The notes beneath the pieces were generated by a model. It saw only the letters and a list, made by a program, of their open reading frames with translations. It was not told the origin of the DNA and ran no database searches. Positions 34,008 through 55,265 of a stretch of DNA of 64,000 nt are shown here, piece after piece. Each line of letters starts with the position of its first letter. Within the stretch, counting starts at the first letter, position 1. The position numbers were made by a program, and so were the translations under genes. Source of the DNA: Escherichia phage UB; sequence record MH383160; one strand, given 5' to 3'.

Positions 34008-34796
34008 TTAAATGTTAGTAGTATAGTACTTGATTTCGTGTTGAATTGCAAGTTCTATTTGTTTATTGAAAAGAATTCCAAACTCTTTGATTGATTCACA
34101 ATCGAATTCAATAGAAAAAGTATACTCTGGTACACGTAGATTGTCAATCCCCAAATACTCTTTTATGTAAATTTTAATGAGTTTACATAGTGCAGTACTA
34201 AGACATTGAATTTCAAAATGTTTTGCACCTTTGTCAAAATACTTGAATGCATCAATATCACCTACAATAAAACTATTCTTTAATGTAGTGAATAGGTTCT
34301 CAGGAAACACGGTAATAGGTGACATTGATTTAAGAATGTATGTATCTTTGGCATTCTTAATGTACTCAATGAAGCAGTAGTTAACGTCAGGCTCGATTGA
34401 ACGATCCGCGTTATGATACCAGTGTTTAAACTCACTGTATTCAGCAAACTTATGCTGGCGTAATGCGTTACATTCTTCACACAGTGCAGTCATGTTCTCT
34501 TTATCATTACCGCCCTGAAGACAGTCCAGTACATTATGGTCTAACGTCATGCGTACAAGGCGTTTCCCTTTAAGTACATAAGGTCTGAATTTATAACGAT
34601 CTTTAGTACTGTGCTTGTGTAAAGTGAATACTACATTTGATTCACCACAACAATCACATTTAAAGCCATCACGTGACATTACATGAATGAGTTTGCGTGT
34701 GTTCGGTCCAAACTCAGATTTAGTAATGTTATCCACAATTTCTGATGGTTGGTAATATTTTGAATTCCGTTGAATCAGTTCATCGATAGTGCCCAT
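34008..34796 (-). CDS. HNH endonuclease
   Basis: HNH core TLDHNVLDCLQGGNDKENMTALCEECNALRQ. Confidence 0.75.
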   Translation of the reverse strand: MGTIDELIQRNSKYYQPSEIVDNITKSEFGPNTRKLIHVMSRDGFKCDCCGESNVVFTLHKHSTKDRYKFRPYVLKGKRLVRMTLDHNVLDCLQGGNDKENMTALCEECNALRQHKFAEYSEFKHWYHNADRSIEPDVNYCFIEYIKNAKDTYILKSMSPITVFPENLFTTLKNSFIVGDIDAFKYFDKGAKHFEIQCLSTALCKLIKIYIKEYLGIDNLRVPEYTFSIEFDCESIKEFGILFNKQIELAIQHEIKYYTTNI

Positions 34797-35027
34797 TTAC
34801 ATTATTCCTTCTATGCAACAACCAAGAATTACTTTTTTAACTTCAACAACTCGTACCAAATAGAATCCATTTGAAAAGTTAAAACTATACATTTGTACTA
34901 AGGCATCTGCTTCAGATTTCGCACGTATACATGATAGATAAATTTCACGTATATCACCATCTAACGATACTTGTTTCTCTGCATCAATGACAATAGAACG
35001 AATCTCAAAACGAACACCATAACTCAT
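34797..35027 (-). CDS. hypothetical protein
   Basis: 76-aa ORF. Confidence 0.5.
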   Translation of the reverse strand: MSYGVRFEIRSIVIDAEKQVSLDGDIREIYLSCIRAKSEADALVQMYSFNFSNGFYLVRVVEVKKVILGCCIEGIM

Positions 35028-35233
35028 TGAGTTTGTCCTACAATAAGCTTTGTGTTAGTATTACTATTGTAACACCACATTTGTTCTTTATTAACTGTAA
35101 TCCAAATATCTTTGTTTACTTGTTCGTATGTACTATCACGTACTGCTATACATTGATTCATGGAATTCATTGGGGTTATTTGTACACCGGAATTAACAGA
35201 AAAAGCTATTACTAAAAAGATTACTGAATTCAT
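35024..35233 (-). CDS. secreted small protein (signal peptide)
   Basis: MNSVIFLVIAFSVNSGVQ. Confidence 0.5.
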   Translation of the reverse strand: MNSVIFLVIAFSVNSGVQITPMNSMNQCIAVRDSTYEQVNKDIWITVNKEQMWCYNSNTNTKLIVGQTQ

Positions 35234-35297
35234 TGGATATTCCTTAATGGTTAATCATCCATCTCTTCGAGATGTCTGTTCGCTTCTAATACTACGT

Positions 35298-35326
35298 ATT
35301 CTACGCGAATGATTAATAACTGTCAA
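35298..35326 (-). promoter_or_regulatory. sigma70-type promoter TTGACA-N17-TAGAAT
   Basis: Minus strand TTGACAGTTATTAATCATTCGCGTAGAAT. Confidence 0.5.
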
Positions 35327-35339
35327 GGACTTTTAATAT

Positions 35340-35820
35340 TGACGGGATTTGAGGAAGGGATTTTTCTTCCCCCCACAAGGAGGGAAATTTGACGCTGATG
35401 GTATCAGAGCTATTGCATTGAAGATTACTCATAAAGAGTGCGAAAGCGGGTCATCCTGTTTCTCTCTACTTCAGTTTCATATGACGGTCTACACTTTTAA
35501 ACATAGTGTATCTTCATTAAGTATCTATGCAATCAAATACTTAATGTGAGTACTCAAATTTTGGACGCAACTTTCCTGTACAAAATTCGATAACTCTCCC
35601 TTAGATAATTCGTAAGGTGTTATCCTTATATGTCTATCAAGGAACCACCAGCTATCCTAACGTGGTTCTTTATACAGCCGCATTGCCGTGAGGGGTTCAA
35701 ACTATGCCCACATCTAACGGGTTTCTTTTGCTGTTCGCACTGTCGGACTGCTCAACTGCCCTCTACGTTTTCGAGTGGATCAGGTACATAAATATCATGC
35801 CAACAGAATTGTACAAGATA
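35340..35820 (-). ncRNA. candidate structured non-coding RNA (unclassified); strand inferred from promoter
   Basis: ~480 bp with no credible ORF, visibly G+C-richer than surrounding DNA, bracketed by an extended -10 promoter and the next gene's promoter. Confidence 0.3.
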
Positions 35821-35850
35821 ATTATATCACAAACTTTTACTTCATCCCAT
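35821..35850 (-). promoter_or_regulatory. extended -10 promoter (TGATATAAT) reading into the ORF-free block
   Basis: Minus strand TTTGTGATATAAT immediately after the sigma-gene terminator. Confidence 0.4.
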
Positions 35851-35876
35851 AAAAAAAGGTTGGCATAAGCCAACCC
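35851..35876 (-). terminator. intrinsic terminator hairpin, bidirectional
   Basis: GGTTGGC-ATAA-GCCAACC flanked by A7 and T5. Confidence 0.65.
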
Positions 35877-35883
35877 TTTTTCT

Positions 35884-36849
35884 TTAGAAATCTTCGTATT
35901 CGTACCCTTTTGCAAGTACTAGCTTCTTAAGCTTTTGCATAGCTTCACTGTACTTTCGATGTATTGATGAACGGGATTTAACATATTTTCCATTATCATC
36001 AACAAAACCATTATCAGCAATCTCACGAAGCGTTTCAGGTTCATATTCACCTAGACCATGAACACGCTGGATAATCTCACGTTCTTTAGTACTCAATTCG
36101 TTAGTCAGTTCATTGATAGCATAACGTAAAGGTGCACGAATACTATCAACATTGAGGTTAAAATCAGAAGCAGGTGAATGAATAATGTCACCTAGTGTAC
36201 CATCGGTAACACCGTCTAATGGTGCATCCAGCGAAGTGTATTCGCTTTGAAATAACAAACAGTTATTAACATGCTGAATCTCAATCCCAGTACCCTCTGA
36301 GATTATTTCAGGAGTTGGGCGAACACCATGTTTACGCATATATTCCTGACAGAATCTTTTTACTTTGATCTTATGAACACTCATATAACGTGGGAAGTGT
36401 ACCATATAGTTAGCGTCAGAACTTTCGTTATAGACTGTCATGTAAATACTAGAAGAAGCATAGGTAATGAACTTAACATTCTTATTAAGATCAAAGGTTT
36501 TTAGTGCTCTCATGAACCCCTCAACACCATATGAAATCTTATCTTCAAATGGGATATAACAAGTACATTTACTTGCTACATCAATAATCAGTCCATAATT
36601 GTAACGAACTAACAGTTCAGTGTTTTTCTTTACATTGATACCAGCTTGAATATCACGAATTAGATCTTCATTGGAAACATTTGGTGGTCGCTTAAGTGTA
36701 ATATTATATTTGAAACTGCTTTGTACTTTACCTTCATTTTCATCTTTATCTTCAACGAAATCTAAGGCTTCTAGTGTGTTGACTTCTTCATTAGCAAAAC
36801 ATTCATCCAGTACTTCTTCGGCAATTGTATTTAAATCAAGCTTTTTCAC
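35884..36849 (-). CDS. sigma-70 family RNA polymerase sigma factor (phage-encoded)
   Basis: Region-2-like ISYGVEGFMRALKTFDLNKNVKFITYASSSIYMTV and region-4-like KEREIIQRVHGLGEYEPETLREIADN; GTG start with TAGGAGATG RBS. Confidence 0.8.
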   Translation of the reverse strand: MKKLDLNTIAEEVLDECFANEEVNTLEALDFVEDKDENEGKVQSSFKYNITLKRPPNVSNEDLIRDIQAGINVKKNTELLVRYNYGLIIDVASKCTCYIPFEDKISYGVEGFMRALKTFDLNKNVKFITYASSSIYMTVYNESSDANYMVHFPRYMSVHKIKVKRFCQEYMRKHGVRPTPEIISEGTGIEIQHVNNCLLFQSEYTSLDAPLDGVTDGTLGDIIHSPASDFNLNVDSIRAPLRYAINELTNELSTKEREIIQRVHGLGEYEPETLREIADNGFVDDNGKYVKSRSSIHRKYSEAMQKLKKLVLAKGYEYEDF

Positions 36850-49904: not shown

Positions 49905-50421
<517 letters not shown>

Positions 50422-54709: not shown

Positions 54710-55265
54710 TAACGGTTAGGAATCTATCCCAACCAGTATAAGTGAAATGATCAAAGTATTGTTTTTCGCCACCTACCATATATACTTCAATTAAACCGTG
54801 GTCGAAATAATTTTTTGGTTTTTTAACTTCAGTTACGATTGCTTTATGTCTGAAACCATTATAATCAGTATATGTTACAATATCGTGAATTTTGATATTA
54901 TCAGGTGTATAAGTGTTGGCGTTATTATTGAGAACATGAAGATGATGGTCTACGATTTCTTTACTGGAAATTACTCCAAATATGTTACCAGAAAATACTT
55001 TATTACCATTACAGGTCAATGCCCAGCCATCACCAACTTCAATAGATTCAAATACATAATGTGTGCAAATTTTAGATACATCTGACGTATCCCAGTAATC
55101 ACCATCAAGATTGGTGAATTTATAAACAGTTTTGAGTTTTTCGCCATCAAATGAAAGCAATGATACTCCGATAACAACCGTTCCGTCTTTAAGAATAATA
55201 TTAAATTTATTATTTGTATTAAAGTATGCTTCTGACTCATATGTGTTGAATTTAATAAAGTTCAT
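54696..55265 (-). CDS. hypothetical protein
   Basis: 189-aa ORF. Confidence 0.6.
   Translation of the reverse strand: MNFIKFNTYESEAYFNTNNKFNIILKDGTVVIGVSLLSFDGEKLKTVYKFTNLDGDYWDTSDVSKICTHYVFESIEVGDGWALTCNGNKVFSGNIFGVISSKEIVDHHLHVLNNNANTYTPDNIKIHDIVTYTDYNGFRHKAIVTEVKKPKNYFDHGLIEVYMVGGEKQYFDHFTYTGWDRFLTVIEEY

Follow-up and report, generated by a model that had tools for sequence, protein, structure and literature searches.

A structured element downstream of a sigma factor gene

In the 64,000-nucleotide (nt) stretch of Escherichia phage UB DNA analysed here (sequence record MH383160; hereafter the window), a gene for a phage sigma factor is followed by a 650-nt intergenic gap (35234-35883) and then by the next minus-strand gene, the genes around the locus lying on that strand. 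The surrounding region is 98-99% identical to the Asteriusvirus jumbo phages slurp01, JP4, 121Q, PBECO4, phAPEC6 and G17, whose genomes are ~350 kb long. An earlier examination of the window by a model that saw the letters and a list of open reading frames (ORFs), which we call the sequence-only reading, had singled out 35340-35820 as a block without a credible ORF, enriched in G+C, and as a candidate for a large structured RNA outside the known classes. We found compensatory substitutions in homologues of this block and no matching Rfam family, and we are highly confident that the RNA exists, that it is encoded on the minus strand, and that it has the structure described below (Table 1). Beyond what had been proposed, the element is multi-copy, ancient and pseudoknotted, and it extends into a conserved G-rich hairpin and a direct repeat.

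The limits first suggested for the block agree with those of the homology block defined by nhmmer (35336-35813). Its G+C content is indeed raised, at 0.405-0.445 compared with ~0.32-0.33 on both flanks (200-nt windows). The signals said to bracket it, the sigma-gene terminator and an extended -10 promoter on one side and the promoter of the next gene on the other, are likewise all present. The gap does hold ORFs, all of them short: one of 66 amino acids (aa) from a TTG start at 35349-35549 on the plus strand, two more on that strand of 53 and 54 aa, and two of 39 and 50 aa on the minus strand. When 28 homologous copies were compared, all six frames were interrupted; the longest stop-free stretch had a median of 75 codons, falling to 50-52 in some copies, in an element of 480-576 nt, and indels between copies were not multiples of three. 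A protein-coding gene was rejected, as no open frame is conserved in relatives; a conserved small frame, which the sequence-only reading had itself named as a finding that would count against an RNA, was absent from these 28 copies.

Table 1. Features at the RNA locus, in the direction of the minus strand (window coordinates).
Feature	Position	Strand	Basis and remarks
Sigma-70-family phage sigma factor gene, 321 aa	35884..36849	-	ORF; annotated in near-identical 121Q, PBECO4, G17 and slurp01
Intrinsic terminator of sigma gene	35851..35885	-	Hairpin 35858-35875 with A and T runs on its flanks; terminator-like on both strands
Extended -10 promoter TGATATAAT of the predicted RNA gene	35821..35829	-	Motif match; predicted start ~35812-35814
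RNA core, ~425 nt: helices P1-P17, three pseudoknots, long invariant joining regions	35389..35813	-	nhmmer, covariation, covariance model
5' domain pseudoknot	35737..35806	-	P1 + P4; encloses hairpins P2 and P3 (loop GAAAACGUA)
Central domain (P5-P8)	35642..35734	-	Covariation
P9 long hairpin and P10 module	35547..35622	-	Per-copy folds
3' domain (P11, P13-P16, pseudoknot B)	35412..35546	-	All helices 97-100% paired
3' hairpin P17	35389..35411	-	CUGAU/AUCAG here, GACGA/UCGUC in most copies; ends in direct repeat 1
Direct repeat 1, GCGUCAA	35389-35395	-	End of P17
G-rich hairpin, UUCCCUCC-UUGU-GGGGGGAA	35367..35386	-	Folds in 45/45 distinct variants
Direct repeat 2, CCGUCAA, within conserved CAAAUCCCGUCAAUAU	35339..35345	-	Repeat of heptamer (N)CGUCAR
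Sigma-70 promoter of next gene, TTGACA-17-TAGAAT	35298..35326	-	11/12 matches; downstream limit of RNA unit
Next gene, 69 aa, no assigned function	35024..35233	-	ORF

Four ancient paralogues confined to Rak2-like jumbo phages

A blastn search with window 35200-35900 as the query returned homologues in 61 phage records, at four to five separate places in each. The host names of these records cover nine genera (Escherichia, Salmonella, Erwinia, Yersinia, Serratia, Pectobacterium, Cronobacter, Xanthomonas and Klebsiella). Matches in distant genera (e.g., Serratia phage BF and Erwinia phages) were ~70% identical over query positions 138-585, equivalent to window 35337-35784, and fell in unannotated regions; the paralogues in slurp01, at 72% and 70% identity, occupy gaps of 680-690 nt between genes and point the same way as the genes on either side. 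Phage 121Q carries four copies, at ~90, 193, 248 and 327 kb, while BF, GAP32, CBB and a Yersinia phage carry theirs at ~30, 175, 260 and 336 kb, and the positions are syntenic across genera. Clusters of flanking genes define four orthologous paralogue groups, A to D, with the window copy in group A. These four paralogues are ancient, each is retained at its syntenic position, and every copy is co-oriented with the genes around it. No protein family was common to the neighbourhoods of all paralogues, including the HNH-like gene described below, and the downstream proteins form unrelated clusters in each group.

Three motif scans of IMG/VR returned 27, 15 and 48 stretches. The true matches were all in jumbo-phage contigs (15-378 kb, most of them from genomes of ~350-380 kb), with three to four per complete genome. 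Across the collected loci (L numbers), nhmmer confirmed 59 copies, and exactly one in the window (E = 5.6e-112, profile positions 2-487, minus strand); apart from it, nhmmer detected no second copy within the 64 kb, where terminator-like short matches were all that appeared. The family is confined to Rak2-like jumbo phages, namely Asteriusvirus, Eneladusvirus and GAP32-, CBB- and XacN1-like phages.

Among 100,044 GTDB genomes scanned there were five matches, three real and two due to chance. Two real copies lie on large contigs, one of 185 kb filed under Silvania hatchlandensis (L066, NZ_JAMGZK010000045.1) and one of 299 kb filed under Enterobacteriaceae RIT714 (L069, WJYB01000004.1). The third is on a 2.8-kb contig of a metagenome-assembled genome, 'Clostridium sp.' UBA10317 (L068), and one of the three is probably a mis-binned fragment. 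The bacterial-filed contigs with copies of the RNA are probably jumbo-phage contigs, reflecting a carrier state or contamination. The first IMG/VR scan also gave seven small metagenome contigs (L018, L028-L033) that, like the GTDB loci L065 and L067, were set aside as chance motif matches, being non-homologous by nhmmer or covariance model.

A conserved fold with three pseudoknots

Comparison of the homologues reveals a compact fold of ~17 helices with three pseudoknots, in which long, invariant single-stranded stretches join the helices. This comparison was needed because the single sequence has no distinctive folding energy: its z-score was -1.8 for the minus strand and -2.05 for the plus strand, an uninformative outcome that we did not use as evidence. 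The multiple short helices that the sequence-only reading had described could not be demonstrated from one sequence, and it was the homologues that established them. When all column pairs of a 24-sequence alignment were scanned without bias, stacked covarying helices emerged, some of them long-range. We tested the pairings on 24 diverse copies, using slid partners and 500 shuffles as controls. In the 5' half (alignment A2), 31 pairs were 97.8% paired, compared with 32-48% for slid partners, and 19 of the 31 change on both sides; in the 3' half (alignment A3), 35 pairs were 99.2% paired, compared with 36-45%, and 26 of the 35 change on both sides. No shuffle out of 500 reached these values in either half. 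The comparative alignment that had been proposed as a check thus yielded compensatory double changes at 45 of 66 tested pairs. Cells with G.U outnumbered those with A.C by 70 to 5 in the tested pairs, which identifies the functional strand as the minus strand of the window, the same as that of the genes.

The 5' domain is built on P1, which joins the 5' end (35801-35806) to the P4 loop (35740-35746) through 8 pairs, 7 with two-sided changes, and on P4 (35749-35751 with 35737-35739), whose 3 pairs are 100% paired and include 2 that covary. P2 and P3 fold in 24/24 copies despite differing stem sequences. Within the central domain, P5 (35730-35734 with 35674-35678) is 100% paired, with 4/5 pairs covarying; P6 (35717-35720 with 35686-35689), which encloses P7, is also 100% paired; and P8 (35663-35668 with 35642-35647) is 99.3% paired, with 5/6 covarying. 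The 3' domain begins with P11 (35540-35546 with 35515-35521), whose loop (35527-35533) pairs with 35412-35418, ~115 nt downstream, to form pseudoknot B (7 pairs, 5 covarying). P13 (35481-35485 with 35450-35454; 3/5 covarying) crosses P15 (35462-35466 with 35442-35446) in an H-type pseudoknot. P14 (35469-35473 with 35419-35423) has 4/5 covarying pairs and P16 (35437-35439 with 35427-35429) has 3/3; in many copies a GNRA tetraloop (GAAA, GCAA or GUAA) closes P16. The alternative pairings UUCCU/AGGGA and GGGAG/CUUUC were rejected, as P8 and P15 covary instead, and a candidate GCGG/CCGC pairing resembling P4 of RNase P had mismatches without compensation. In the window copy, P4, pseudoknot B, P13, P14 and P15 consist of standard pairs throughout; once the window row is re-aligned by one base, P1 has 7 pairs, of which two are wobble.

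Seven helices (P2, P3, P7, P9, P10, P12 and P17) were out of register in the MAFFT columns and were judged from per-copy folds, in which they form in all or nearly all copies with differing stem sequences. P9 has an outer stem, GAUAAC/GUUAUC, and an inner one, CCUUA/UAAGG (35613-35617 with 35599-35603), which is 98% paired and nearly invariant. P10 (window 35547-35590) has the stem AAUUUUG/CAAAAUU with the loop UACAGGAAAGUUGCGUC, and its conserved loop of ~17 nt reads UACAAUAUAGAUCCGUC. It stands between P9 and P11 in most copies and is absent there in five, four of which carry the module after CCCGCUUUCGyuCUC. The P10 module replaces the tip of P16 in group C, being found at the P16 position in L006, L013, L020, L021, L026 and L036, and it occurs at both sites in 121Q copy C and L020. 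P10 looks like a transposable structural module.

Long stretches of the core are conserved in sequence: GAAAAYGUA, AGAUGAG, AAGAAACCCG, GGCAAUGCGGC, UAUAAAGAA, GAUAGACAUAUAAGG, AAGGGAG, UUGAUUGYAUAG, CGACCGU, UAGRRAGAAAC and ACCCGCUU. The signature GACCGU-N12-18-UARRRAGA-N9-10-ACCCGCUU, with the G-rich hairpin and then the second CGUCAR after it, was present in 30/30 full-copy loci and also in the window. A covariance model of the 3' domain (R1; P14-P17), built from 19 sequences of other genera and none from Asteriusvirus, gave one strong match in the window, at 35389-35490 on the minus strand (model positions 1-102, 72.9 bits, E = 2.7e-15). The next match, at 54936-55032 with 17.6 bits, is inside a 189-aa ORF and was discarded as noise. 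R1 found 37 further matches in the other loci, and 31 distinct sequences, which form an independent set, were 97.5% paired; on 31 distinct sequences P13, which is outside the R1 model, was 100% paired, with three covarying pairs.

Transcription signals and conserved elements past the core

The motif TGNTATAAT occurs 29 times in the window, compared with 9.1 expected, and 25 of the 29 are on the minus, or gene, strand; it appears to be the phage's standard promoter for host polymerase. A perfect TGnTATAAT was found in 26/34 distinct upstream regions, ~8-25 nt ahead of the conserved 5' end. Group B copies (L005:20347-20400, and L014, L016, L042, L047, L053, L055 and L061) have a TATAAT promoter, then a terminator-like hairpin with U6-8, and then the 5' end of the RNA; this upstream hairpin could be a 5' stabiliser or an attenuator.

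At the other end, an intrinsic terminator (hairpin plus U6-8) directly follows ...AUCAUCGUCAG in 10/24 copies, in groups C and D. The window copy has no terminator after the core, which continues into the G-rich hairpin and a second CGUCAA heptamer. Variants of the G-rich hairpin hold 405 Watson-Crick and 49 G.U pairs, and its 3' strand reads GGGGG(G)AUGAA almost without variation. The core ends in the heptamer (N)CGUCAR, which recurs 47-86 nt downstream, past this hairpin, and the two copies (DR1 and DR2) change together: the A or G after GUCA agrees in 27/28 copies, and AUC has become ACC in both repeats in 3 copies. The base ahead of CGUCA matches between the repeats in most copies (including G/G and A/A) and differs in Asteriusvirus and L039-type copies. 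Such joint change suggests that the repeats have a pairing partner or a protein site in common, or that re-annealing takes place.

The first 50 nt after the element form an A+T-rich spacer (G+C 0.26, compared with 0.34 for the genome), and AACGAAG is enriched 5- to 7-fold 20-80 nt downstream of the element. In genera other than Asteriusvirus, a further conserved block lies 40-100 nt past the element, between it and the next start codon (L013, L021, L025, L026, L035-L037, L039-L041, L043, L045, L046, L049, L050, L054, L057, L063 and L064). It consists, in order, of TGAATTGAG; a hairpin with the conserved loop AACGAAGTGA and covarying stems; and AACGAAAATTCTT-TGACATTCG-AA-GAATGGCA-AATC. The final segment forms an inverted repeat that shows compensatory changes and keeps an A.G mismatch; it can also be read as a -35 TTGACA. 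Its motif AAT[TC]CTT[TA]GAC occurs 21 times in 427 kb, and in 20 of these cases an element lies 39-98 nt upstream on the same strand. The block may be an RNA hairpin, an operator, or a special promoter. In 121Q copy D (L011:2380-2440), A+T-rich sequence of ~150 nt, containing ACGAA/ACGTA repeats, separates the element from a bidirectional terminator and the convergent genes beyond it. The 'ORFs' that are conserved past group D copies come from reading such convergent genes in antisense.

Comparison with known RNAs

No family in Rfam 15 matched the block, RNase P, tmRNA, 6S, group I and II introns, GOLLD, ROOL, OLE, HEARO and raiA included. The covariance-model scan, which the sequence-only reading had listed among its checks, was run at the gathering threshold on the window, at E <= 10 on 35100-36000, and at E <= 1 on ten homologous loci. 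The gathering-level matches in the window were five tRNAs, all elsewhere, and 35100-36000 gave terminator-type fragments and noise of at most 21 bits. ARAGORN found no tRNA or tmRNA at 35 kb nor in 35/36 homologous loci; the tRNAs of L021 are 9-13 kb from the element. Several likenesses noted by eye were dropped. Those of AGAUGAG, ACAG..ACCCGCUU, AAUGCGGC and GAUAGACAUAUAAGG to RNase P CR-IV and CR-V and to group I P, Q, R and S, like that to RNase P CR-I, were neither maintained across copies nor backed by a model. The same was true of k-turn or C/D-box strings and a tetraloop receptor, and a CsrA-binding ACARGGAUG was confined to the window copy. A search of the literature, including a catalogue of viral structured RNAs, the Sharanji genome paper and a 2026 review of jumbo phages, found no description of the RNA; the longest IMG/VR entry in that catalogue is 151 nt. 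The RNA is thus a class without a relative in Rfam or the searched literature, and it may prove to be a functional analogue of something known.

The closest parallels are in size and style. Like GOLLD and ROOL, ornate RNAs found in phages and prophages, the present RNA is longer than 400 nt, multi-pseudoknotted and phage-borne, with its own transcription signals and extensive covariation. Cryo-electron microscopy has shown GOLLD and ROOL to be homo-oligomeric RNA-only complexes (PMC12286853). Their Rfam models gave no match to the block or to the ten loci at the thresholds above. Moreover, GOLLD and ROOL are often beside tRNA genes and occur in one copy, whereas the present RNA is not beside such genes and has four diverged paralogues per genome in Rak2-like phages of Gram-negative hosts. 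RNase P RNA and group I introns share with it their size class, long-range pseudoknots and invariant joining regions. However, cmscan with all Rfam models of both found nothing, and the present RNA has another order of helices, without the 5'-3' terminal P1 of RNase P and without the P3/P7 topology. It also differs from them in being intergenic, with its own promoter, no exons, and four copies per genome.

A related jumbo phage, PA5oct, has long non-coding RNAs that resemble it in lying in ORF-free regions and in numbering four per genome. These RNAs, ncRNA001-004, were defined by RNA-seq and are actively transcribed; ncRNA002 is 451 nt long and accounts for 1-5% of phage reads (PMC7318152). 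Neither nhmmer nor R1 detected homology in PA5oct 5-25 kb (L034), which covers ncRNA001 and ncRNA002, and the hallmark motifs were absent from this region.

A proposed trans-acting RNA and its alternatives

We favour the reading that 35389-35813 on the minus strand is the gene for a stand-alone, trans-acting non-coding RNA of ~425 nt, to which we assign a probability of roughly one half. Under this reading, host sigma-70 RNA polymerase would start at the extended -10 TGATATAAT, just past the sigma-gene terminator, and the RNA unit would end ahead of the next gene's own promoter. The product would then act in trans as RNA: its invariant joining regions would make up a core for binding or catalysis, like that of a ribozyme, a ribonucleoprotein (RNP) or an RNA-only assembly; the hairpins at its periphery, which vary (P2, the P7 insert, P9, the P10 module and P16), would tune each paralogue; and the G-rich hairpin and repeated CGUCAR past the core would define or protect the 3' end. 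Action in trans is suggested by the element's own promoter, by the terminators that follow the core in part of the family, and by the independent promoter of the next gene in the window. It is suggested also by the downstream genes, which are unrelated between paralogues and which in the case of 121Q copy D are convergent, and by the combination of invariant junctions with variable peripheral hairpins, which is typical of ribozymes and of RNP or RNA-assembly cores.

Several observations weigh against this reading. The start site and the 3' end of the RNA are placed from motifs, and the folding energy of the single sequence is uninformative. The four paralogues are retained syntenically and are all co-oriented with flanking genes, which a cis role would explain equally well. 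In addition, groups C and D carry the G-rich hairpin, the co-varying repeat and further conserved hairpins beyond the terminator, so that a plain model of a gene plus its terminator is insufficient.

The alternatives of a leader and of a replication origin both draw on this syntenic retention and co-orientation, on the hairpin past the terminator and the co-varying repeats, on the A+T-rich spacer, and on the further block downstream of the element in other genera. The first, which we consider unlikely, is that the RNA is a giant cis-acting leader or switch, the 5' part of a longer transcript that controls downstream events. It could do so by termination after the core (groups C and D), by processive antitermination, or through access to the downstream hairpins or start codon, with the two CGUCAR copies serving alternative pairings. 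A leader would account for the co-orientation of every copy with local genes, for the terminator right after the core in 10/24 copies with RNA-type structure conserved beyond it (the G-rich hairpin with its 49 G.U pairs), and for DR1 and DR2 co-varying at several positions as if both paired with one partner. It would also fit the block with two covarying hairpins ahead of the next start codon in other genera, where the motif is found downstream of an element in 20 of 21 cases. However, the downstream genes are unrelated between paralogue groups, 14/24 copies have no terminator, an 11/12 sigma-70 promoter separates the window element from the next gene, and no antiterminator pairing was found; a riboswitch or leader would be expected to keep one downstream gene family or pathway across its representatives, and an expression platform in competition with the aptamer. 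Nor can 121Q copy D be a leader, because a bidirectional terminator and convergent genes follow it. HK022 put and EAR offer a precedent, being promoter-proximal structured RNAs upstream of terminators and co-oriented genes. They are 70-120 nt long with two or three hairpins, whereas the present RNA has 425 nt, independent downstream promoters, and in copy D no co-oriented genes downstream. Leaders and antiterminator RNAs measure ~70 nt (put), ~120 nt (EAR) and ~250 nt (T-box), and an RNA of 425 nt with three pseudoknots far exceeds the known ones in elaboration.

A second alternative, also unlikely and which we rank after a leader, is that each locus is one of four or five replication origins of the 350-kb genome. 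By analogy with the promoter-plus-unwinding-element origins of T4 and with ColE1 RNA II, the transcript would persist as a hybrid, or provide a primer, in the A+T-rich stretch, with the G-run hairpin and CGUCAR assisting. The four to five dispersed, syntenic copies would suit such a role, as would their constant orientation with the genes and the order of promoter, structured transcript, G6 hairpin, direct repeat and A+T-rich spacer; since DR1 equals DR2, the 3' end of the RNA might anneal downstream. The enrichment of AACGAAG downstream points the same way, although it partly reflects shared ancestry and is not independent evidence. In contrast, cumulative GC skew is smooth through the locus, and the terminators of groups C and D would halt the transcript ahead of the proposed priming site. 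ColE1 RNA II and T4 oriF and oriG resemble the present RNA in being promoter-driven, structured transcripts of several hundred nt by G-rich and A+T-rich sequence, in T4 at multiple sites. Yet these origin transcripts form simple hairpins or are not known to have a conserved structure, and the T4 origins are not known to be homologous to one another, whereas the tertiary fold of the present RNA is conserved across genera; no origin transcript is known to be conserved as a pseudoknotted tertiary structure with invariant junctions.

It is very improbable that the element is not an RNA at all, being instead a conserved DNA-level element (a protein-binding region or a structured signal in single-stranded DNA) or a decayed or unconventional protein gene: long stretches are conserved, DNA hairpins tolerate G.T wobble, so that strand bias alone is compatible with single-stranded DNA, and several records have short ORFs annotated here ('hypothetical protein (x5)'), but compensatory changes maintain 66 pairs in long-range helices and pseudoknots, GNRA tetraloops cap P16, a promoter lies upstream and same-strand intrinsic terminators downstream, and the frames are broken by stops and indels in relatives.

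The four paralogues could be subunits or isoforms of a new jumbo-phage RNA machine; this, or else that the RNA is the first structured priming RNA to define jumbo-phage replication origins, is possible, though we regard it as doubtful. Such a machine would be a ribozyme, an RNA-only assembly or an RNP, possibly hetero-oligomeric, with peripheral loops and CGUCAR repeats mediating intermolecular contacts, and its activity would be of a kind new to phage RNAs. The bacterial and phage RNAs of more than 400 nt with complex conserved tertiary structure include rRNAs, RNase P, tmRNA, group I and II introns, OLE, GOLLD, ROOL and HEARO. Only about a dozen such classes are known, each of which has exposed catalysis or an unexpected architecture. 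The present RNA adds a further one, with unusually clean comparative support. The presence of four diverged copies at fixed positions across genera points to a central, unrecognised step in the life of jumbo phages, in gene expression, host take-over or replication. The RNA also fills regions that are now left empty or labelled with spurious 'hypothetical proteins'. Because it is present in the cultivable E. coli phages 121Q, PBECO4, phAPEC6, G17 and Sharanji, genetics and biochemistry are feasible at once.

Neighbouring genes and other features

The terminator of the sigma gene has the stem GGTTGGC/GCCAACC and a T run, and it is annotated as a terminator in G17 and UE-S1. A sub-threshold Rfam match to PrrB_RsmZ aligned the terminator part of that family to it on the minus strand. 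On the other side of the RNA, the 69-aa gene is followed by a 76-aa ORF and then by a 262-aa HNH-endonuclease-like gene (34008-34796, minus strand). Genes of this neighbourhood are not kept beside the other paralogues. The HNH-like gene, which lies 0.5 kb past the RNA on its downstream side, is annotated as an HNH endonuclease in relatives. Upstream of paralogue C (L006) there is a homologue of 218 aa, and there is no association with the other paralogues or in other genera.

Two further observations concern regions away from the locus. In slurp01 (LT603033.1), positions 76123-78315 (L004:11124-13316) form a 2.2-kb unannotated gap among dense small genes, without a copy of the RNA. The window also contains a tRNA cluster at 48-53 kb, with five tRNAs by Rfam and six by ARAGORN; among those found by ARAGORN is a tRNA-Ser (49911-50002, minus strand) with the anticodon ACT, in which an unmodified A34 would be unusual.

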